NCBI GenBank assembly: GCA_031367385.1
Contig: JANLPS010000055.1
Coordinates: forward strand, 20,098 to 84,097
DNA length: 64,000 nt
Reading direction: 5' to 3'
DNA from: Archangium sp.
GTDB lineage: Bacteria; Myxococcota; Myxococcia; Myxococcales; Myxococcaceae
Of this stretch, positions 32,283-47,396 are shown piece by piece (position 1 is the stretch's first letter; every line of letters begins with the position of its first letter). The position numbers and the translations under genes are program-made. The notes beneath the pieces are model-generated. The model was not told the origin of the DNA. It saw only the letters and a program-made list of their open reading frames with translations, and did not search any database.

Positions 32283-33932
32283 TTAGGGGCTCAGGTCGCG
32301 CTCGAGCTTCACCAAGGCGACGGTTGCCGCATCTTGGCCGCATTCTGGTTTTCGTGGCTGGGCCTTGAGCGCCTCGAGCGGAGCCACGGCCTGAGCGCTG
32401 CGCAGCTCTCCCAGCCGCTTGGCTGCGACGCTTCGAATCGCGCAGTCTTTGCTGCCCAACGCCTCGATGTAGAGCTGCGGTAACGGCAGCCCCTGACCCG
32501 CAAACTGCAAATCAACGAAGCGCAGCGCGCCCCATTGATCCCAACTCGGGGGCCGGCGGGCGAAGTCTTGGAGCACCGGCAGCACCTGCGCCTTGGGCCA
32601 CTTCTCGAGCAGCTTTCGCGGTCGCGGGTCTTTGAGCTCATTGCGACCGAAATCATCGGCGGCGGCCTGCACCGCTGACGCCTCGAGCTCGACCTCGGCC
32701 GGCACGCTCTCGAACAGCTTGCGCGCGTCTTCCAACCGGCCCACCTGGTACAGCGCGGTCGCCTTCAACATCTTCAGCGGCCACCCAGGCGCCTCGCCAC
32801 CGGCGTCGTCGATGATCTGCAGCGCTTCGCTCCCCCGCCCCGCTTCGACCAGCCGGCGAGCACGTCGCTCGGGCTGGTTCCACACCAGCAGGGCGCTCAC
32901 CGCCCCGACCGCGAGTAAGATCGCAAACGCCAGCAGCCCCGCTTTTTGCGCCTGCCCGAAGGCCGAGCGTGGGGCCTCGTCTGGGGGCGTGAGCGCGTGG
33001 GCCTCCATCAGCGACGAGAGCGTCTTGGCCAGGGGTATCGGCGCGATGGTCAGCCGGTCGATGACCTCTTGCGCCGTCTGCGGCCGCGCCTCTGGCCGCT
33101 TCGCCAGCATCGAGCTCACCAGATCAACCATGCGGGGGAAACTCTCGAGGTGGGGCGCGACCAAAGTCAACGCGCGAGGCTCGGCGTGAATGTGCTGGCT
33201 GACGAACTCGCTGGGCGAAGGGCCGCTGAACGGGTGCGCTCCGGTCAACATGCGATAGGCCAGAACCCCCAGTGAATACACATCACTGCGAGCATCGAGC
33301 GGTTGACCCATCGCCTGCTCGGGCGACATGTACTCGGGCGTACCCAGCACGAACCCCACCTGCGTCACGTGGCTGCCCTCGTCAGGGGCCGCGAGCCGCG
33401 CGATGCCGAAGTCGAGCAGCCGGGCGGTCTCGATGCCCTGGGTGTTCTTCGAAAGCGTCACGTTGTCGGGCTTGAGGTCGCGATGAACGATGCCGCGCTC
33501 GTGAATGGCGCTCAAGCCGTGCGCCAGCTGCAAGATGATCGCCTCGGTGCGCTCGATCGATAGCGGCGCTTCACGCTGCATCACCGACTCGAGCGATTCG
33601 CCCTCGACGAGCTCCATCACAAGGCAGGCCGACAAACCGTGGTGGCCGAAGTCGATGACCCTCACGACTCCCGGGTGCTCGACCGACGACAACAGCAGCG
33701 CCTCGCGACGAAACCGCTCACCGACGTTGGCGGTCAGCGGCAAGTCTTCGCGCAACACTTTGAGCGCGACCTTGCGACCGAGCGACACCTGCTCGGCCAG
33801 ATACACCAGGCCCATGCCGCCACCGCCCAGGAGCTTCTCGACGCGAAAGCGCCCATCGAGCACCAGGGTGCCCGCGGTCAGCCCGGGTTGGGCGGCGAGG
33901 TGGGTGTGTGCCAGGGTGGCCTCGGGCTGCAT
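32283..33932 (-). CDS. Ser/Thr protein kinase with TM and helical-repeat C-terminus
   Basis: LGGGGMG, VALK, HRDLKPDN, DFG, GTPEYMSPEQ; TM; TPR/HEAT-like tail. Confidence 0.94.
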   Translation of the reverse strand: MQPEATLAHTHLAAQPGLTAGTLVLDGRFRVEKLLGGGGMGLVYLAEQVSLGRKVALKVLREDLPLTANVGERFRREALLLSSVEHPGVVRVIDFGHHGLSACLVMELVEGESLESVMQREAPLSIERTEAIILQLAHGLSAIHERGIVHRDLKPDNVTLSKNTQGIETARLLDFGIARLAAPDEGSHVTQVGFVLGTPEYMSPEQAMGQPLDARSDVYSLGVLAYRMLTGAHPFSGPSPSEFVSQHIHAEPRALTLVAPHLESFPRMVDLVSSMLAKRPEARPQTAQEVIDRLTIAPIPLAKTLSSLMEAHALTPPDEAPRSAFGQAQKAGLLAFAILLAVGAVSALLVWNQPERRARRLVEAGRGSEALQIIDDAGGEAPGWPLKMLKATALYQVGRLEDARKLFESVPAEVELEASAVQAAADDFGRNELKDPRPRKLLEKWPKAQVLPVLQDFARRPPSWDQWGALRFVDLQFAGQGLPLPQLYIEALGSKDCAIRSVAAKRLGELRSAQAVAPLEALKAQPRKPECGQDAATVALVKLERDLSP

Positions 33933-33960
33933 TTCGCTCTCTTCTATCTGGTTTGCTTCG

Positions 33961-34413
33961 TCACAATTCAACCCGAATGGCGCACTTCACCGAACGCGCC
34001 AGGAAACACGATTCATGCGCGCGATGGTGCAGCTTCTCGAGCACCTGCCGCTCGGGCATGACCGCCGCGGTCACCTTGGGTCGCAGCACGACTTGCGTCA
34101 TCGACCACCACCCCTGAGGGTCGGCCTCGAGCAGCCCTGAGGCCTCGTCGGCATACGAGTCAAGCTCGAGGCCTTCTTGCGCGGCGAAGGCCAAAAACCA
34201 GAGCATGTGACAGCTCGAGAGCGCCGCGACGAAGCCCTCTTCAGGGTCGACGGCGGCTTCGGTCGAGAGCGGCGTCGGCACCCGCAGTGGAGAAGCTGAG
34301 GCGACGACGGTGGTGCCTCCATCGAATTTCCACACATGCTCGCGGCGATATTGGCTGTCGCGAAAAGACGAATCACCGCGTACCCATTGAATGGTGGCCG
34401 TGTGCGTGCTCAT
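33961..34413 (-). CDS. OsmC/Ohr family protein
   Basis: DPEE.FVAALSSCHML, AHESCF.ARSV. Confidence 0.92.
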   Translation of the reverse strand: MSTHTATIQWVRGDSSFRDSQYRREHVWKFDGGTTVVASASPLRVPTPLSTEAAVDPEEGFVAALSSCHMLWFLAFAAQEGLELDSYADEASGLLEADPQGWWSMTQVVLRPKVTAAVMPERQVLEKLHHRAHESCFLARSVKCAIRVEL

Positions 34414-34496
34414 GGCCTCCTGCGATGCTCTCTTCGGCCGAGCGCGTCAAGCGAGCTGAGTTGCAATTGAGCAGGCAGGTGAGACATGACGTTCTC

Positions 34497-35681
34497 GTGT
34501 CTCGAATCCTCGGTCTTCTGCTGTGTCTGTCGCCCTCACTGGCCTGGTGTTGGGGGTTCACGGGGCACCGCATGCTCGCCAAGCACCTGCAAGACCCGTT
34601 GCCTGCCAATTCGTGTTTGCGCCAGTGGTACCAGGCGCACCAGGCCTTCGTTTGGCAAGACCACGCCTGCGACCCCGACCGGTGGAGAACGGGTGACAGC
34701 GCTGCTGGGCCCTTCGACCCGAACGAAGCCCCGAGGCATTTCTTGGAGATCGACTGGGCGCAACCCGTCTCATCGTACCCGCGCGACTACGCGGCGGCGC
34801 AGGTGCAGTTCGGCCAGTACGTCATTCGCAATGGTCAGGTGCCGTGGCGGGTCGAGCAGATGTACGGCGTGCTGGTGAACGCGTTTCGCTCGGGCGACCA
34901 GAACGCGATCTTGAACAATACGTTTTGGCTCTCGCACTACGTGACCGATTCGTTTTCGCTGCTCCACGACACCGAAAACTTCGACCCGAATAGCGGCCTC
35001 CATTCTCGGTGGGAGTCAGACATGATGGGCGTGTCGTCGAACTTGAATGCGATTCAGGACCTGGCCGCGACGCTGTACGGCACGCCGGGCATTGCTGACG
35101 CGAAGAACAACATCTTCGACTGCGTGATCGTCGGCAACGGCCTGGTGCCGCAGCTGATTGCAGCCGACCGAGCGGCCAGCGGCGATGGCGGTGTGTACGA
35201 CAAAGACACCTACAAGCTGCCGGTGCTCTTCGACTTATCGAAAGATTTTACGGCTCGACGCTGGGCCGATGCAGAGACGGTGTTGGCATCTCTGATCTGG
35301 ACGGCGTGGGCCCAGGCCGGCAGCCCCGAGCTGCTCGGCGCCGACGGCGGGTTCTCGAGCACATGCTCACGCGCGCCGCCCAGCGGTGAAATCGTCATTC
35401 GCGGCTTTCCAGTGCCTGGGGGGTTCACGCACCCAGGCGATGGGGGCGTGGTGTTTCCTCCGCGTGATGCGGGCATGCCGCAGGTGGGCACCGATTCGGG
35501 CGTCGACGTGCCCGACGCAGGCTCGACCGACGGCGGCGCAGGGGGTGGCCAGGGTGGAGGCAGTGGCGGCGGCGGCGGAGATCAACCCCCCGTGGGATGC
35601 GGCTGCTCGCAACTCGAAAGCTCAGCGCTGCTGCTCGGAGCTTTGGCGATGGTGCTTCGTCGCCGACGTCACTTGGCGTGA
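34497..35681 (+). CDS. S1/P1 nuclease / Zn phospholipase C family protein with MYXO-CTERM anchor
   Basis: Signal then WGFTGH, PD.W, HF..D, HYVTD...LH, LHSRWE; GCGCS-TM-RRRR tail. Confidence 0.85.
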   Translation: MSRILGLLLCLSPSLAWCWGFTGHRMLAKHLQDPLPANSCLRQWYQAHQAFVWQDHACDPDRWRTGDSAAGPFDPNEAPRHFLEIDWAQPVSSYPRDYAAAQVQFGQYVIRNGQVPWRVEQMYGVLVNAFRSGDQNAILNNTFWLSHYVTDSFSLLHDTENFDPNSGLHSRWESDMMGVSSNLNAIQDLAATLYGTPGIADAKNNIFDCVIVGNGLVPQLIAADRAASGDGGVYDKDTYKLPVLFDLSKDFTARRWADAETVLASLIWTAWAQAGSPELLGADGGFSSTCSRAPPSGEIVIRGFPVPGGFTHPGDGGVVFPPRDAGMPQVGTDSGVDVPDAGSTDGGAGGGQGGGSGGGGGDQPPVGCGCSQLESSALLLGALAMVLRRRRHLA

Positions 35682-36853: not shown

Positions 36854-39800
36854 ATGACGTCGCGCGCCGACTCGATGTTGGGGCGAACGCTTGGCGACTT
36901 CATCGTTCGCGAGCGAATCGGCTCGGGCGGCGTCGGAGAAGTATTTCGCGCCGAGCAGGTGACGTTGGGGCGCGAAGCGGTGATCAAAGTGTTGTCGCGC
37001 AACCGCGAGCTGAGCACGCCCGCGGCCGATCGGTTCTTGCGCGAAGCCCGCTTGGCCTCGCGGCTCGATCACCCCTTTGCCGCGCACATCTACGCCTTCG
37101 GTGCAGAGCCCGACGGCATGCTGTGGATCGCGATGGAGCTGGTTCGGGGCATACCCCTCGACCGGTTGATCTCGACCCAAGGCCCCCTGCCGCTCGCCCG
37201 CTTCGTGCCATTCTTCGAGCGCCTCGCCGAGGTGCTCTACGCGGCGCACGAGCAGGGCATCATTCACCGCGACGTGAAGCCGGCCAACGTGATGGTGCTC
37301 AGCCGCACCGGGAGGCTGCTGCCGAAGTTGCTCGACCTGGGCATCGCGCGGGCCGATTCGTCGTCGAGGCCGGCCACCCAGTCAGTCGCGGTCGACATCG
37401 AGACGCTCTCCGACGAGCCGGTCGATGATGGCGCGCTGAGCACCAGCGGTGAGCTGATGATCAGCAAGTCGAGAGACGCAACGCTGGCGGGCATGGTCAT
37501 CGGCACGCCCCACTTCATGGCGCCCGAGCAGTGGAGCGACGCCTCGAGAGCCGACGTTCGCAGCGACGTCTACAGCCTGGCGATTCTCGCGTACCAGGCC
37601 ATCACCGGGCGGCTGCCGTTCAAAGGGCACTCGCTTCGCTCGATGGCGCGGGCGCACGCGAAGCATGCCCTCCCAGAGTTGGGTGAAGGCCTGCCAAACG
37701 CCCTCTACGCGGTGCTGGCGAAGGCGACAGCGAAGCGGCCCGAAGATCGCTACGCGAGCGCGCTGGAGCTCTCGAGCGCGCTGCGGGTGGCCTCGGGGCT
37801 CGAGTTTGAAGCCGCCTCGCTGCCGCAGCTCGATGATGGGCTGCGCGAGACGGTGTTGGCGCAGGCACCTCAGCCGATCGCCGAGGCGGTGGCGATGCTC
37901 GAGGGTGCACGGTCGCCGCGGCAAGCGGTCGACGCGGTGTCGGCGGTGCAGCGGGTGGTCACCCGGCACCTGGCGATGATGGCGTTGGCAGCGCGGGCTC
38001 GCATCGGCGCTGGAGGCGAAGACGACACCGAAGAGGTGCTCGGGTTGATCAAACGCGCCGCGGCCGGTCGCATCGATGACGATGCGTGGCGGGCGCTGAC
38101 CGTTGGGCTGGTGCAGCCCTTCGCCGATCGCCGCGATGCGCACCCGGTGCCCGAGCTGGTCGCGGTGTTCTTCACCGGCGATGGCCGAACAGGCACCGGC
38201 GCGTTGGCGCTCGAGCGGCTGGCGCAGCTGCCATGGCCAGGGCTCGAGGCAGCGCAAGACGAGCTGATTGCCTTCTTGCACCAGGCGATACCCGCGGCGG
38301 GGCAGGTGCTCTCGACGCTGTCGTTCTTGTTCGACTACTCGCTGGTGGTTCGCCGCAACGACGCCGAGCGTTGGATGGGCACTCGCCGCAGCCGCCGGGT
38401 GCCGCAAGACGTGCTCGGGCCGCAGCCGGTCGACGGAGAGGTCGCGCTGCTCAACTCGGCCGGGTCGATGGTGTTGACGTTGTCTCCGTTGGTGCAGCTG
38501 ATCGCACCGAGTGGAGGCGCGATCGAAGAGCTCTTTTACTTCGACGGCCCCGGTCGGCACGGGGCGAGGCTGCTGGCGTTGCCGGGGCCCTTCGAGCGGC
38601 AAGACTCCGAGCTGTGGGGCTGGTTCTCGCAGAACATCACCGACGTGCTGGCCCCGGTGCACCGGGTGGGGCGCGATGAGCACGAGCCGTACAAGGGGTT
38701 GAGCGCGTTCACCGCGCACGACGCCGACAATTATTTCGGCCGCGAGAAAGAAGCCCAGGGCTTCGCGAACCGCATGCGGGCTGAGCCTTTGCTCGCGGTG
38801 GTCGGGCCTTCAGGGGCTGGCAAGTCGTCATTCATTTCGGCGGGCGTGGTGCCGCTGTTGCCCAGGAGCTGGCGCACGGTGGTGATGCGGCCGGGCACCT
38901 CTCCGTTGGCGGCATTGGAGAAGCGGATGATGGCCGAGAAGCTCGGCGCCGAGGGGCTGGCGGCCAGGGTTCGGCGTGACCCGTTGGCGCTGGCCAATCA
39001 CGTCGCAGGGGCGTTGGCGCCGGGTGAGACGCTGCTGTTGGTGCTCGATCAATTCGAAGAGCTGGTGACCCTGTGCGCCGACGTTGAAGAACGTCAGGCC
39101 TTCGCGCGCGCGGTCGCCCATTCGGCCGATCTCGCCGGGAGCCGGGTGCGGGTGGTGATGACCCTGCGCGACGATTTCTTGATTCAAATCACGCAGTTGT
39201 CGGCGTTTCGAGATCGCCTGTCGAGCGCGCTGCAGTTGCTGGCGACTCCGGCGCCAGACGATTTGATGCGCGTGGTGATTGAGCCGGCGCGGCGGGTCGG
39301 GTTCGGGTTCGACGACGAGACGCTGCCAAAGCGAATGGTCGACGCGGTAGCCGAACACTCGGGCGCGTTGGCGCTGCTGTCGTTCACGGCGTCGCAGATG
39401 TGGCTGTTGCGCGACCGGCACCTGCGGCAGATGCGGGCGAAGACGTACGAGGCGATTGGCGGCGTGGGCGGAGCGCTCGCGAACCACGCCGAGCGCACGC
39501 TGGCGCAGCTGGCGATGCCGCAACAGCGGCTGGTGCGAGAGGCGTTTCGCCAGTTGGTGACGGGCCAGGGCACCCGCGCGGTGCTCTCGCGAAAGGAGCT
39601 GCTCGAGGTGCTGGGCAACGACGCGGCCGCCGACGAAGTGCTCGAGACGTTGGTGAGCGCGCGGTTGCTGATTTCGGGCGAGGGCGATGGGCACGAGACG
39701 CGCACCGAGCTGATTCACGAGTCGCTGATTCATTCGTGGCCGCGGTTGGTGGAGTGGCTGCGGGAAGATGCCGAGACGGCGCGGCTGCGAGATGCGCTGC

Positions 39801-42238
39801 GCTCGTCGGCGCGGCACTGGCTCGAGCGCGGCCGACCCCGCGGGTTGCTCTGGCGCGAAGAGACGCTGGCTGAATTTCAGCTGTGGCGCGCGAGGTTCAG
39901 TGGTGGCCTGACCGAGGCAGAGCGTGCGTTCGCTGACGCGAGCGTGCGGGCGCAGGCGAGGGGTCAGCTGATTCGGCGCGCCTTCGCCGCGGCCGCGTTC
40001 GTGGCGTTGGCGGCGGGGCTGGTGGTGGTGGCGCAGGCGTACCGTTCGGCAGAGGCAGCGCTTGGCGAATCACGGGCGAGCGCGACCAAGGCCCAGCAGC
40101 GGCTGGCGAATTTGCGGCAGGAGCAGGGGCGGTTGGCGATGCTCGAGAACAAGCCGCTCGAGGCGCTGGCCTATCTCGACGCAGCGCGCACAGCGGGAGC
40201 GCAGGGGCCGGCGCTCGACCACATGCTGAATTTGGCGACGTGGCTGACGCGGGGTGAGATTCGCAGATTCGGCGAGGCTGACCCGAGCACCGATGATGTG
40301 CTGTCACCCGATGAGAAGACGCTGGCTATTTTTCACGAGGGGCATGTGACCTTGTGGGACGTCGCCAGTGGCGTCATCAGGTCTAAGATCAAGACTGCGG
40401 CCGTCGCCGGGGCGTTCGCGCCTGATGGGCAGCTGGCGCTCATCAACCCGGAGGGCACTCTCGACTTTTTCGACCAGACCTCGGGCGCGCTCAAGTCGAA
40501 GATTGAGATCGGGAAGGGGACGTACTTCAGCGTCGAGTTCGATTCTCAAGGCAAATTCATCGTGCTGTCGGGTGTCGGGGATCAGGTTCGAATTGTGCGA
40601 CGATCGGGTGAGGTTATCGCGACGCCGGCTGCCCCGGGCGCTCTCCGACTCTCCACCAAACTCAACCAAGACGGACGTGTGGTCGCAATCTTCGCCGGTC
40701 CGTCTGTCGCCACACCAACTTCGCTCCGAGATGTGAGGTTGGTGAACGTTGAGACAGGCGCACTCGCCTTCAAGATTCATCTTGATGACCCGGCGAGACA
40801 GGTCGTCTTTGGCCCTCTCGATCGGTTCGCGATCGCCGATTCGAATGGGCAGCTCTCGATGGCAAATGTGGGAACCAAGCGGGTCGAGTGGCAACGCCGT
40901 GAGCACGCAGGCCCGATTCAAAGTGTTTCGTTCAGCCCTGGCGGTGACCGATTGATGTCGTTGGGGTTCGACGGCAAGGTTGTCATCTGGGATGCGACCG
41001 ATGGTCGAAAGCGACAATCGGTGACACTCGCTTCGGGCCCACTACGTGCTGGGTTCTGGTTGGACTCACGATGGATCGTCGTGCAGCTCCCCGACGGCGT
41101 GCTTCAGAAGGTCAATGTCGAGACCGGCGAACGTGATTGGCGATTCGTCGGTGACGCCGCTCGCGCGAGCGTATGGAGAACTTCAGATGGCGCGACCATT
41201 CTCACCAGCGCCCCGAACGGAGTCATTCGCAGCTGGGATGCAAGCACGTCGGGAGGCAAAGCGAGGTTGGCCGGGCATCACGTCAACTCAGTGTTTGGGT
41301 CAGGCGTCGCGACAAACCAGGCCGTAGCTTCGAATGACGGCTGGTTCGTACTCGGCGTCGATGATGATTCGACCACTCTTGTAAGAGCGAAGGGGGCGTT
41401 TGGAGACGGTGACGTTGCAGCGCAGATAAGTACCGACGGAACGCATTTAGTGCGGGCCCTTGAGCGAACAGTTCAGGTGTTGAATGAGAAATCGGGCTTC
41501 GAGCTTACGCAAACGCTCACGGACACGAGTTCGATTTTTTCGATAGCCATCGACGCCGCGGGGTCGCGTATCGCAATGCAAACGGACTCTGGAGAAATTT
41601 CACTTTGGAGTGGGACTCCATTCACCAAGGTGGCGACAATCTCGGCTTTGGGCAGCGACAGACACTCGCCAGGCTTTTTCGTGAACGACGAATTGATAAC
41701 CGGTTCGACGACAGGCGTATTGGAGAGATGGGATGCGAAGTCGGGTCAGTCGGTAAGCCGCAGACAGGCTTTCAACTCGCTCATTCTTCCGCTTCAATCG
41801 TCGGTCCCCGATCGGTTTTTCGCCGTCACACTGAATGGCGCCATTCAGGTTTGGTCGTTGAATGCGAACTCCCTCATCACAGAAGTTCCGGGGCTTGGGG
41901 TTCTGCCGCTCGCGGTCGAAATGGACCCCGCTGGCCACTTGCTCTCGGAATTCACGCCTGATGGATCTTGGTCGACCTGGGATCTGCAGGAACATCGGCT
42001 TTTAAGCCGAGTCATCACAATTGGGCCTTTGCGAGATGCTGTCACTAGCCGAGGAACTGTTGCGCTTGTCAGCCACGAGGGCTCCCTCGTGGCATGGCCC
42101 GCGATCGCGCCTTCTTTCTCTGCGGAGCAGACTGCTCGGGCGGTGCGATGCGGCCCGAGCGAACTTCGCGATGATCGGCTCGAGGAACGGGACGCTGACA
42201 GACTTCTGGCATGCGCGTCGCTGCCGACTCGCGAATAG
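36854..42238 (+). CDS. Ser/Thr kinase - nSTAND1-type NTPase - TM - WD40 repeat protein
   Basis: HRDVKPAN, DLG, GTPHFMAPEQ; PYKGL..F...D...FGR, GPSGAGKSS, LVLDQFEE, TLRDDF, ELIHESLI..WPRL; hydrophobic helix; WD repeats. Confidence 0.92.
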   Translation: MTSRADSMLGRTLGDFIVRERIGSGGVGEVFRAEQVTLGREAVIKVLSRNRELSTPAADRFLREARLASRLDHPFAAHIYAFGAEPDGMLWIAMELVRGIPLDRLISTQGPLPLARFVPFFERLAEVLYAAHEQGIIHRDVKPANVMVLSRTGRLLPKLLDLGIARADSSSRPATQSVAVDIETLSDEPVDDGALSTSGELMISKSRDATLAGMVIGTPHFMAPEQWSDASRADVRSDVYSLAILAYQAITGRLPFKGHSLRSMARAHAKHALPELGEGLPNALYAVLAKATAKRPEDRYASALELSSALRVASGLEFEAASLPQLDDGLRETVLAQAPQPIAEAVAMLEGARSPRQAVDAVSAVQRVVTRHLAMMALAARARIGAGGEDDTEEVLGLIKRAAAGRIDDDAWRALTVGLVQPFADRRDAHPVPELVAVFFTGDGRTGTGALALERLAQLPWPGLEAAQDELIAFLHQAIPAAGQVLSTLSFLFDYSLVVRRNDAERWMGTRRSRRVPQDVLGPQPVDGEVALLNSAGSMVLTLSPLVQLIAPSGGAIEELFYFDGPGRHGARLLALPGPFERQDSELWGWFSQNITDVLAPVHRVGRDEHEPYKGLSAFTAHDADNYFGREKEAQGFANRMRAEPLLAVVGPSGAGKSSFISAGVVPLLPRSWRTVVMRPGTSPLAALEKRMMAEKLGAEGLAARVRRDPLALANHVAGALAPGETLLLVLDQFEELVTLCADVEERQAFARAVAHSADLAGSRVRVVMTLRDDFLIQITQLSAFRDRLSSALQLLATPAPDDLMRVVIEPARRVGFGFDDETLPKRMVDAVAEHSGALALLSFTASQMWLLRDRHLRQMRAKTYEAIGGVGGALANHAERTLAQLAMPQQRLVREAFRQLVTGQGTRAVLSRKELLEVLGNDAAADEVLETLVSARLLISGEGDGHETRTELIHESLIHSWPRLVEWLREDAETARLRDALRSSARHWLERGRPRGLLWREETLAEFQLWRARFSGGLTEAERAFADASVRAQARGQLIRRAFAAAAFVALAAGLVVVAQAYRSAEAALGESRASATKAQQRLANLRQEQGRLAMLENKPLEALAYLDAARTAGAQGPALDHMLNLATWLTRGEIRRFGEADPSTDDVLSPDEKTLAIFHEGHVTLWDVASGVIRSKIKTAAVAGAFAPDGQLALINPEGTLDFFDQTSGALKSKIEIGKGTYFSVEFDSQGKFIVLSGVGDQVRIVRRSGEVIATPAAPGALRLSTKLNQDGRVVAIFAGPSVATPTSLRDVRLVNVETGALAFKIHLDDPARQVVFGPLDRFAIADSNGQLSMANVGTKRVEWQRREHAGPIQSVSFSPGGDRLMSLGFDGKVVIWDATDGRKRQSVTLASGPLRAGFWLDSRWIVVQLPDGVLQKVNVETGERDWRFVGDAARASVWRTSDGATILTSAPNGVIRSWDASTSGGKARLAGHHVNSVFGSGVATNQAVASNDGWFVLGVDDDSTTLVRAKGAFGDGDVAAQISTDGTHLVRALERTVQVLNEKSGFELTQTLTDTSSIFSIAIDAAGSRIAMQTDSGEISLWSGTPFTKVATISALGSDRHSPGFFVNDELITGSTTGVLERWDAKSGQSVSRRQAFNSLILPLQSSVPDRFFAVTLNGAIQVWSLNANSLITEVPGLGVLPLAVEMDPAGHLLSEFTPDGSWSTWDLQEHRLLSRVITIGPLRDAVTSRGTVALVSHEGSLVAWPAIAPSFSAEQTARAVRCGPSELRDDRLEERDADRLLACASLPTRE

Positions 42239-42366
42239 GCGTCAGGTTACCGCCGGCTTTCGAAGCGCCAGAGAGCTGACGTCTCAACCTTTGGTTTTCA
42301 TGCCGCGTCCATCTGGACTGTTTCGTGCTGATACCCCGCGTTCTCAACCACGACGGAGGGTTCGCG

Positions 42367-42507
42367 ATGGCGCCCAAGAAAAAATTACTCACGTTGAACA
42401 TCACCAAACTCAAAGCCCTTAGTGATGACGAAGGCAAAACGGTACAGGGAGGGAGTGGGACGAACTCGACGACTTGCGGAACGACCTACTGCCCCAAAAG
42501 CGGGTAA
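42367..42507 (+). CDS. putative RiPP (lanthipeptide-like) precursor, 46 aa
   Basis: GGAGGG RBS; leader MAPKKKLLTLNITKLKALSDDEGKTVQGG; core SGTNSTTCGTTYCPKSG; hairpin right after stop. Confidence 0.72.
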   Translation: MAPKKKLLTLNITKLKALSDDEGKTVQGGSGTNSTTCGTTYCPKSG

Positions 42508-42510
42508 GCC

Positions 42511-42543
42511 AAAGGCGTGAACGGCTCGCTCGTTCACGCCTTT
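42511..42543. terminator. bidirectional intrinsic terminator
   Basis: Perfect 13-bp stem AAAGGCGTGAACG / CGTTCACGCCTTT, 7-nt loop. Confidence 0.75.
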
Positions 42544-43024
42544 AGTTGCTCAGCGAAATCACACACCCCTCAATCTTCTTGAGCGCCTGTTTGAGCACCA
42601 TCTGGCTCAGCGACTCTCCGTCGATTGAAAAGTCACCCTTCAATGCCTTGCCCGAGTCGCCCTTGACCGACAACCCGTCGGTGAGCGAAATCTGGCTGCC
42701 GTGCACGATCGCGTCGGGGTCGACCTTCGCCGTGCCGCCAATCGCGACGATGCTCTCGGTGACCTCGGCGCCGGCTTCGATCAGCACGTCACCCTTCACC
42801 GCCAGCACCGACTTCACCTTTGCGCCCTTCTTCACCGTCACCTTGCCCTGTAGCGCGATCACATTCTCGACCGTGCGACCGCTCTCGATGACGATGTCTC
42901 CGCGCTTTTGCATCACATCGCCCTTGCCGACGCTGATGTGACAGGTGTCTTTCTTCGCCGCCTCGTCAGCCATCGCCGTGGTGCTGCCCATCGACACGAC
43001 TGCCATCACCAAAAGAGCTCGCAT
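42542..43024 (-). CDS. exported beta-helix protein (bactofilin/polymer-forming-like repeats)
   Basis: Signal peptide; repeats V..V.A..G.V.I..GA.V. Confidence 0.65.
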   Translation of the reverse strand: MRALLVMAVVSMGSTTAMADEAAKKDTCHISVGKGDVMQKRGDIVIESGRTVENVIALQGKVTVKKGAKVKSVLAVKGDVLIEAGAEVTESIVAIGGTAKVDPDAIVHGSQISLTDGLSVKGDSGKALKGDFSIDGESLSQMVLKQALKKIEGCVISLSN

Positions 43025-44199: not shown

Positions 44200-46328
<2,129 letters not shown>

Positions 46329-46332
<4 letters not shown>

Positions 46333-47396
46333 GCCTCATCGCAATCGCCCTTTCAGCAGCATTGGCCGCCGCACCCGCGGGCTCTGCAGCGAGCCAGGCA
46401 GACAATGGGTTGTCGGCGACCGACAAGGCCAAGGCCAAAGACCTCTTCGGGGTTGGGCAGAAGCTCTACAAGGCCGAGCTCTACCCCGAAGCGATCGAGA
46501 AATTTCAAGCGGCCTACGCGATACGCCCCCACCCGGTCATCTTCTTCAACATCGCCAAGTGCTACGAGCAGCTCCAGGAGACGGGCAAGGCCATGCGCGC
46601 GTATCGCGACTACCTGCGGCTCAGCCCAGAAGCGACCGACAAAGACGCGGTCAACGATTCAATCGCGAACCTCGAGCGGCGCCTGAAAGAAAAAGGGCTG
46701 AATCAAATCATCGTGTTCGCCGACCCCGCGACGGCGAAGATCGAAATCGATGGCAAAGAGGTTGGCGTCTCACCCGCCTCGGCCGAGCTGGTCTCGGGCA
46801 CGCACAAGATCGCGGTGAGGGCCCCGGGCTATGACCCGGTCGAGCGCACGTTCATCATGTCGATCTCGCGTGTGAGCGAGATGACGGTGAACCTGCGCGC
46901 GGGTGCGACGCCTTCGATACCGACCGCGAGCAGCGGCACGACGGGCACGACTGGCACGACGGCGGCGCCTCCTGGCTGGGGCTCGGGCACGGCCGCACCG
47001 GCGAACTCGGGGTGGGGCAGCTCGACGGCGTCTACGACCGGTGACGCACCGAAGAAAGACGACCTCAAGGTCGCGACGTTGACTCCGGCGACGACCGACA
47101 CGGTGAAACCCGCGGCCGAGACGAGCCAGGTGGTCACGGCTGCGCCGGCGAAGAAGGGCCGGGTGTGGACGTGGGTCGCAGGGGGCGTGGCGGTGGCGGC
47201 GCTCGGGGGCGGCATCACGTGTGGCGTGGTCTCGAATGGAGCAGCGAATGACTTGCGCACGGTGCAGCATTCGCGCGCCGACGCGACTGTGCTTGCGAAT
47301 ACCTCGACCCAGTTCGCGACCGGCGCCAACATCGCGTACGGCGTCGCGGCTGGTGCGGCGATTACCGCGGTGATTCTGTTCTTCGTCGAGAAGTGA
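46329..47396 (+). CDS. TPR + PEGA domain exported protein
   Basis: AIEKFQAAY...HP.IFFNIAKCYE; IDG..VG.SP...L..G.H; C-terminal TM; ATGA overlap with the kinase. Confidence 0.85.

Follow-up and report, generated by a model that had tools for sequence, protein, structure and literature searches.

A kinase-STAND-propeller receptor gene paired with a double-glycine leader peptide gene in Archangium sp. and its relatives: a possible peptide-receptor signaling cassette

Organization of the locus

The window analyzed here, a 64,000-nucleotide stretch of Archangium sp. (assembly GCA_031367385.1, contig JANLPS010000055.1, positions 20,098 to 84,097), contains a gene for a predicted membrane receptor kinase and, starting 128 bp past its stop codon on the same strand, a 46-amino-acid (aa) open reading frame (ORF; 42367-42507) with a double-glycine (GG) leader. 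A previous sequence-only reading of this window had taken the two genes for a matched receptor and ligand exchanged together. Our analysis revealed that the pairing of such genes, which recurs within this genome and among its relatives, is not chance. The features of the locus are as follows (window positions; GC3, GC content at third codon positions; pLDDT, predicted local distance difference test).

36854..42238, plus strand: predicted single-pass receptor gene, 1794 aa (ORF call, Pfam, motifs, and structure model)
36905..37753, plus strand: Ser/Thr kinase domain, aa 18-300 (Pfam and intact catalytic motifs)
37835..38635, plus strand: family-defining alpha+beta domain (marker domain), aa ~328-594 (model, pLDDT 95.5)
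38687..39841, plus strand: nSTAND1 NTPase, aa 612-996 (Pfam; Walker A GPSGAGKS and Walker B DQFEE intact)
39980..40039, plus strand: predicted transmembrane helix, aa 1043-1062 (hydropathy and charge, N-side positive)
40259..42103, plus strand: tandem WD40-like beta-propellers, 60 strands, about 15 blades (model and Foldseek; predicted periplasmic, hypervariable)
40541..42540, no strand: low-GC3 block over most of the propeller and the peptide gene
42149..42214, plus strand: C-terminal Cys1766/Cys1787, the sole cysteines past the membrane helix
42314..42329, plus strand: sigma-54-type -24/-12 motif GG-N10-GC, 53 bp before the peptide start (8/12 against the consensus)
42355..42359, plus strand: ribosome-binding site GGAGG
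42367..42453, plus strand: 29-aa double-glycine leader with Leu-12, Glu-8, Val-4, and Gly-Gly, Gly-7 replacing the usual Leu
42454..42507, plus strand: 17-aa hydrophilic core, Ser/Thr/Gly-rich, with two Cys, plus the stop codon
42511..42543, no strand: 12-bp perfect inverted repeat (hairpin fold)

The 1794-aa protein is ordered as Hanks kinase, alpha+beta domain, nSTAND1 NTPase, membrane helix, linker, and double beta-propeller, and Pfam, motifs, and the propeller model bore out the intact kinase, nSTAND1-like NTPase, and C-terminal WD40-type repeats proposed earlier. The kinase matched Pkinase over aa 18-269 (E = 2.5e-32) with its motifs GSGGVG, AVIK, HRDVKPAN, DLG, and APE intact and a long, variable, Ser/Thr-rich insert between DLG and APE, and two of three homologs showed an identity dip at aa 150-200 of the protein. 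The next ~280 aa, formerly described as a helical region, were modeled instead as a helical bundle with a beta sheet, for which Pfam holds no family. The NTPase scored 331.8 bits against a Pfam cutoff of 27.1 (E = 1.1e-98), and with this score, intact Walker A and B motifs, an N-terminal effector, and a C-terminal repeat sensor, the protein is, judging by its domains, a member of the nSTAND1 proteins, whose STAND module would undergo ligand-triggered nucleotide exchange and oligomerization.

The helix at aa 1043-1062 had also been proposed to span the membrane, and its mean Kyte-Doolittle hydropathy of 2.23 and the arginines on its N-side predict the same; thus, the double propeller would face the periplasm, with kinase and NTPase predicted to be cytoplasmic. 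The VAIK, HRD, and DFG-like motifs together with one N-in helix (topology from hydropathy and charge only) agree with a Hanks receptor kinase. Many beta-propeller families matched aa ~1200-1673 in Pfam, PF00400 falling just below its cutoff (25.8 versus 27), and the model of aa 1136-1794, built on a 78-row alignment (pLDDT 93.1), comprises 60 strands followed by a short C-terminal cap, which can be read as about 15 blades forming two propellers. Foldseek matched it to tandem-WD proteins including Apaf-1, with TM scores of 0.34 to 0.41 in most rows. Cys1766 and Cys1787 likely form a disulfide.

As for the ribosome-binding site and terminator claimed for the peptide gene, GGAGG is present, and a consensus terminator/sigma-70 scan around the locus gave 0 sites, missing the 42511-42543 hairpin, which is nonetheless strong (z = -5.3, 0/200 shuffles as strong) with a short U run only. 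This repeat is likely a terminator common to the peptide gene and the convergent gene. The GG-N10-GC motif is the best-conserved stretch of the spacer in the window and the two nearest loci (3/3 aligned), and a putative RpoN- and activator-dependent transcription start would lie 12 bp downstream of 42314-42329. Given this motif of its own, cotranscription across 42238-42367 is not expected, and the peptide gene is probably not read through from the kinase gene.

Recurrence of the gene pair within the genome and across relatives

The genome, 98% complete, contains six paralogs with a STAND domain and a complete 3' end, five of which (C158, C485, C178, C365, and C480) are followed by a GG-leader ORF at a gap of 95 to 167 bp, each with a different core. 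Behind the sixth (C360; L005:9752-12393) lies an IS21 element directly and no peptide, with an FHA-sigma-54 activator upstream, and four further paralogs (C375, C284, C447, and C259) are truncated by contig ends. At the edge of contig C19 (L011:5621-10049), a tail 46.5% identical to a family tail is followed by peptides 1.7 and 3.1 kb farther on. In control comparisons, none of the 116 non-STAND kinase ORFs of the same genome had a GG peptide within 500 bp behind it, and only 8 of 4576 ORFs longer than 300 aa had one behind them, 5 of these 8 being family members. The genome holds 17 such leader peptides in total, 12 of which are not directly behind a family gene, some lying in ordinary clusters for ribosomally made peptides with posttranslational modifications (RiPPs).

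To compare relatives, loci were pooled from assembled sources, GTDB contigs (best 80 of 445), and metagenomes (79 loci, best 80 of 423), giving 189 distinct STAND ORFs, of which 58 were left out (open 3' end, tail shorter than 650 aa, or less than 400 bp downstream) and 131 kept. Ninety of these form the family, 79 by the marker domain and 11, cut at the 5' end, by at least 48% identity, and the other 41 serve as the outgroup; some pooled loci are close kin, and the outgroup STAND kinases are mostly from Acidobacteriota. A locus was called paired when a GG-leader peptide lay within 500 bp of the stop codon, the leader profile having been started from peptides of this genome and then iterated over the regions behind the pooled genes, so that other leader types would be missed. 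By this measure, a peptide follows 45 of the 90 family loci versus none of the 41 outgroup loci, and 45 of the 82 propeller-tailed members versus none of the 8 with an FGE tail, as expected if small GG-leader ORFs recur behind homologs. One additional locus (L155) has a GG peptide below threshold. The peptide loci are scattered over many subclades, the gap is 30 to 222 bp in 41/45 of them, and several peptides are present in 18/45.

The catalytic motifs are intact across the family, with the HRD motif in 66/67 members and Walker A in 80/81. All 45 peptide loci have at least one 19-residue window with a mean hydropathy of at least 1.6 after the STAND module, and the N-side of the helix is the more positive in 42/45. 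The C-terminal Cys pair occurs in 37/45 peptide loci, 23/45 peptide-less family loci, and 1/41 outgroup loci. The family is large by the count of its marker domain, which hit 337 clusters at E ≤ 1e-30, yet it occurred in 11 of the 401 Myxococcota genomes searched, and the closest named homolog loci come from Myxococcaceae, Archangiaceae, and Kofleriaceae metagenome-assembled genomes.

Some loci vary this arrangement. L096, L099, L100, L106, L110, L115, L176, and L193 carry an FGE/C-lectin tail on the kinase-marker-STAND-membrane chassis, never with a peptide, mostly on Acidobacteriota-labeled, low-GC contigs. At L064, the position of the peptide, ~100 to 370 bp past the STAND stop, is taken by a small ORF that begins like a leader and contains PPPSQ repeats; a kinase-sigma-54 activator fusion follows it. 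The receptor ends early in the propeller or STAND region, by a frameshift or stop, at L056, L059, L060, L154, L175, L178, and L199, and at L060, L175, and L199 a peptide lies 1.1 to 1.8 kb past the early stop, about where the full gene would end. At the C19 locus, the opposite strand carries an ATP-grasp gene, and a LanC-like gene sits between two identical GG peptides whose sigma-54 motifs are strong. Elsewhere in the genome (L013, L016, L012, and L015, on C215, C438, C413, and C451), the leader family serves RiPP clusters with YcaO/TfuA, an MbnB-type oxidase with YcaO, a cupin, and a methyltransferase.

Promoter motifs, activators, and exporters

Upstream motifs were scored as matches out of 12 to the -24/-12 consensus of sigma-54. 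A score of at least 8 was reached by 49 of 73 peptides versus 7.7 expected, and a score of at least 9 near the stop codon by 33/45 peptide loci, 6/45 peptide-less loci, and 3/41 outgroup loci, compared with a genome background of 151/4558 genes (3.3%). The motif is not general in front of the other genes of these loci, as a score of at least 9 preceded only 1/35 kinase genes and 2/17 exporter or activator genes. Sigma-54 requires an enhancer-binding protein, and sigma-54 activator genes occur in 19/90 family loci versus 0/37 outgroup loci, with an FHA domain in 12 of the 14 scanned. At L061, HlyD, a peptidase-containing ABC transporter (PCAT), the receptor, the peptide, and an FHA activator follow one another in one row on one strand, and in this genome the neighbors of paralogs C259 and C360, and of the second exporter (on C277), include FHA-type activators.

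Among the 73 family leaders, 68 have a GG-like end, 64 have Leu-12, 54 have Leu-7, and 49 have Val-4. According to the available part of PMC6363468, PCATs recognize a Gly-Gly end together with hydrophobic residues at -4, -7, and -12; the family as a whole fits this rule, and the window peptide has Val-4, Glu-8, and Leu-12 but Gly at -7. With a median length of 22 aa and a hydrophobic fraction of 0.22, the cores are short, hydrophilic, and mostly near neutral; many are rich in Ser/Thr/Cys, and 15/73 lack Cys. A C39 exporter was found in 11/12 genomes with a family member versus 11/54 other relatives, kin that are not independent, the one family genome in which none was found (G008) being 86% complete. 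In 6 of the 11 genomes, no more than about 10 kb separates the exporter from a family gene, with only one to three matches per genome. This genome has two full C39-ABC exporters, on C365 (beside a paralog) and on C277.

Other neighbors were observed as well. At the C365 paralog (L003:477-5846), the peptide is followed by TolC, a C39-ABC exporter, and a C39-like/VKOR fusion protein, which may help disulfide formation in Cys-rich cores, and related aldo-keto-reductase-like genes adjoin the paralogs C480 (L004:5747-6712) and C485 (L001:3196-4125). In the window, the locus is flanked by a kinase-TPR gene (32283-33971) and an FHA-kinase-PEGA gene with a TPR-PEGA partner (44200-47396), and 34287-35681 carries a weak MYXO-CTERM-like end. 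At the two nearest loci (L050 and L156), the peptide is followed by a convergent chemoreceptor (MCP) gene; in the window, an unrelated gene of 186 aa occupies that place.

Propeller variation and the question of joint exchange

The WD40 region had been expected to be hypervariable with a common breakpoint, and this was supported: median identity across loci is 29% for the propeller versus 60% for the STAND/chassis, and in comparison with the three nearest proteins, identity falls off at aa 1145-1170 (for P0002, 90% before and 51% after). Propeller similarity follows that of STAND (rho = 0.62). The drop in GC reported for the WD40 half and the peptide is real, GC3 falling from 0.85 to 0.62 with the peptide at 0.65, but the changepoint is at aa 1229 (window 40541), inside the propeller, and not at the membrane helix. 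An assembly chimera was rejected because in run X6, which carries no flag as a possible source, contigs span both the GC break (40257-41139) and the end of the gene together with the peptide (42061-42569) with 0 differences. A foreign donor was likewise rejected, since the three close propeller matches (52, 43, and 38% identity; the next, 27%) are 1785- to 1793-aa proteins of the same architecture. Nor is low GC a family trait: only 1/45 peptide loci drops by at least 0.15, and the drop in the window is the largest of 131 loci while the medians are alike (0.054 in peptide loci versus 0.051 in the outgroup), so the drop is no family signature and names no donor.

More direct traces of exchange came from close pairs of loci. 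Between L061 and L161, fourfold-site differences are 2/205 in STAND versus 60/205 in the propeller (p = 7e-18), and an 85% identity tract begins 1380 bp ahead of the stop codon and ends 800 bp beyond it, spanning the peptide, between flanks of 99%. Between L188 and L196, the counts are 21/219 versus 97/237 (p = 6e-15). Two close peptide-less family pairs showed no step, and the other 21 peptide pairs showed a smaller excess in the same direction, as did 5/7 outgroup pairs. In a scan of nine pairs, four more (L158/L159, L163/L166, L163/L167, and L084/L085) had a stretch of low identity that reaches from the propeller across the peptide and is bordered left and right by higher identity, to which, at the distances of these pairs, faster evolution of the spacer can contribute; of the remaining scanned pairs, two had no right flank and two had no such stretch. 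There was no clear case of a wholesale propeller swap between distant chassis among the listed pairs.

The proposal that sensor and peptide were exchanged together is therefore upheld in part: recombination tracts cover the propeller in two close pairs, one of them ending just past the peptide, but the predicted covariation of cores with propellers was not found beyond descent, and GC points to no donor. At fixed STAND similarity, core similarity did not track propeller similarity (partial rho = -0.105, p = 0.94, 45 loci), in a test that the short cores make weak.

Read data bear on the propeller of the window as well. In runs X4 and X5, from one study, contigs break at 40567 and about 42100 (window 40567-42124), the left break being 26 bp from the GC3 changepoint, and depth across this interval runs 11.6-8.2-11.3 and 10.3-7.5-10.7, a dip of about a quarter. 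An alternative propeller branch was not seen in X4 or X5 at 80% likeness. Run X2 contains short contigs 82 to 85% like the propeller.

Relation to known systems

Literature searches covering titles and the starts of abstracts, with most subscription journals and supplements outside their reach, found no paper describing the pairing. As far as the available part of PMC5295010 describes them, ComC/ComAB/ComDE and BlpC/BlpAB/BlpHR likewise combine a GG-leader pre-peptide, a C39-type ABC exporter, a membrane kinase, and a transcription activator; induction of the peptide's own gene would be a further likeness, as would an exporter able to act in trans. Unlike those systems as given there, the present one has a Gram-negative host, a receptor that is a Hanks kinase-STAND NTPase with a large double propeller rather than a histidine kinase, an activator candidate that is an FHA-sigma-54 protein rather than a response regulator, and many parallel channels per genome. 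The locus proteins gave no HisKA/HATPase or receiver match and so show neither a histidine kinase nor a response regulator; by analogy, the system would work like ComCDE/BlpCHR without being a member.

The order effector, STAND NTPase, and tandem WD40 propellers is shared with Apaf-1, STAND/NLR proteins, and bacterial nSTAND1 proteins, and the available portions of PMC8195603 and PMC10907252 mention kinases as effectors as well as STAND proteins that are anchored in the membrane and have their sensor in the periplasm. In contrast to the proteins in those portions, a membrane helix here splits NTPase and propeller and an extra alpha+beta domain is present, and a neighboring exported peptide with a sigma-54 promoter motif is not mentioned in them. 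The family also recalls TraA kin recognition in myxobacteria, a polymorphic surface sensor in a social bacterium; however, in the accessible account TraA binds TraA on contact, while here a diffusible peptide would serve as ligand and a kinase cascade as output.

For the activators, FHA-domain enhancer-binding proteins are known from Myxococcus (Jelsbak et al., 2005). Such proteins reportedly couple Ser/Thr kinases to sigma-54. Both cases combine Hanks kinases and adjacent FHA-sigma-54 activators with a target promoter motif for sigma-54; unlike there, what is encoded upstream of the activator here includes a candidate ligand and a receptor, and the kinase-activator contact is putative. With class I lanthipeptide precursors (L1a leader, NF038153), the family shares the leader type, 9/47 peptides passing the cutoff, and many Ser/Thr/Cys-rich cores. 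The window peptide differs in matching neither NF038153 nor NF038158 (E ≤ 0.05; E ≤ 1), 15/73 family cores have no Cys, and neither LanB nor LanC is beside the window locus, both being on other contigs, from which they may act in trans.

A possible autoinduction circuit and its alternatives

We put the probability at roughly one half for an autoinduction circuit in which the product of the large gene, a predicted single-pass inner-membrane receptor kinase, has its own peptide signal encoded by the small gene behind it. The parts of this circuit and their linkage were observed, and from these we infer every physical step. PCAT would cut the leader after Gly-Gly and export the core, in some loci after modification. 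The core would reach the periplasm and bind the double propeller, as cytochrome c binds Apaf-1, and the binding, relayed via the membrane helix, would let the STAND module oligomerize. The clustered kinases would then phosphorylate one another on Thr, and an FHA-domain enhancer-binding protein would read the phospho-Thr and activate sigma-54 promoters including that of the peptide itself, which would make the loop a positive one. With a propeller and a core of its own, every paralog would serve as a distinct channel, and now and then homologous recombination would replace the distal propeller and the peptide as one tract, yielding new specificity types. Somewhat short of even odds, and so tentative, is the wider proposal that myxobacteria have made a transmembrane hormone receptor out of an NLR. 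The result would be a multichannel peptide code for quorum sensing or kin recognition in Gram-negative bacteria, in which a genome has up to about ten channels and specificity changes when propeller and peptide recombine as a single unit.

A number of observations weigh against this circuit. Among propeller-tailed members, 37/82 have no detected peptide within 500 bp, activators are equally frequent near peptide-less (9/45) and peptide (10/45) loci, and the family-outgroup contrasts are confounded by taxonomy. The 9/47 peptides passing NF038153 fit a product as well as a signal, and LanC-like, cupin, and flavoprotein genes flank several loci. For joint exchange, the failure of core similarity to track propeller similarity beyond the chassis and the exceptional GC drop of the window are unfavorable, the cores of L001 and L057 are similar (0.59) with propellers only 29% identical, and the X4/X5 breaks may represent a second propeller allele keeping the same peptide. 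At the window itself, no exporter or activator gene adjoins the locus, the leader has Gly at -7, and the sigma-54 motif is weak taken alone (8/12, shuffle p = 0.06).

Many of the same data suit the main alternative, which we consider less likely than the circuit. In it, the receptor senses an outside cue (prey, a competitor, or peptides of foreign origin) and the role of the GG peptide is confined to output: as an antagonistic peptide or the precursor of a RiPP, it would be turned on through an FHA-sigma-54 activator and would have stayed next to its regulator. The sigma-54 motif, activators, and exporters fit it equally well, and it is favored by the absence of core-propeller covariation beyond descent, the modifying-enzyme genes beside some loci, the loci with several peptides, the lanthipeptide-type leaders, and the use of the leader family in YcaO/TfuA and MbnB-type clusters of this genome. 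The peptide-less propeller members also agree with it, as do the eight with an FGE/C-lectin tail on the same chassis, a tail proposed as an invader sensor in the available part of PMC10907252. What an output alone leaves unexplained is one distinct peptide per paralog in one genome, the narrow gap in most loci, the lack of peptides behind FGE-tailed members, and a recombination tract taking distal propeller and peptide jointly; most cores, moreover, are hydrophilic and near neutral, unlike membrane-active bacteriocins.

Strict adjacency, the polymorphism of propeller and core, and their joint recombination tracts would also be expected of a toxin or kin-discrimination agent whose neighbor is an immunity or alarm protein, neutralizing it or triggering defense. 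We regard this as improbable, because an 1800-aa kinase-NTPase whose motifs are intact in nearly all members is built to signal and the cores are mostly neither cationic nor hydrophobic.

About as improbable, in our view, is that the protein acts against invaders as an NLR whose effector is the kinase (and perhaps a HEPN-like part), the peptide being a warning signal or passenger. nSTAND1 was defined in counter-invader systems with kinase effectors, according to the available part of PMC8195603, and the helical half of the marker domain is weakly HEPN/Roquin-like, with matches to the Roquin N terminus (Z = 8.5; root mean square deviation, 4.4; 131 aligned) and a HEPN toxin (Z = 6.4; root mean square deviation, 3.5; 113 aligned) that are below the bar for helical bundles. 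For this domain, Foldseek returned nothing at E ≤ 0.001, the PDB sequence search nothing under E = 0.17, and the Atlas search unnamed clusters only, with low recognition. A HEPN-like fold next to a kinase would recall the kinase-nuclease arrangement of Ire1 and RNase L; an active HEPN nuclease was rejected, however, because the R-x4-6-H motif is not conserved (6/90 rows with any RxxxxH-like pattern, all different), and RNxx[AG]H occurs in 0/149 marker-domain representatives. The sensor, furthermore, lies beyond the membrane helix, and the neighbors are sigma-54 activators and exporters rather than defense genes (PADLOC not scanned).

That common peptide genes merely hitchhike behind a mobile duplicated gene has hardly any probability left, for although most such peptide genes of the genome are not directly behind a family gene and half of the family has no peptide, such a peptide follows none of the 116 non-STAND kinases and, outside the family, just 3 of the 4576 genes, and the pairing is kept across many subclades.

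Implications

The receptor-peptide cassette is real and specific and, apparently, unpublished, and genomics supports the proposed autoinduction circuit well, with the ligand-receptor link as its putative part. Peptide quorum sensing is the rule in Gram-positive bacteria. In myxobacteria, the density signal studied best consists of mixed amino acids and peptides, according to the available part of PMC12288465. What would be new here is the class of receptor through which a peptide pheromone signals. The cores are of a length that can be synthesized, and natural allele pairs such as L061/L161 allow cognate and noncognate combinations to be compared. If true, the circuit would supply a defined, self-made ligand for a bacterial NLR-type protein, would represent a STAND switch worked across a membrane, and would name the input for a class of myxobacterial Ser/Thr kinases and FHA-sigma-54 activators.

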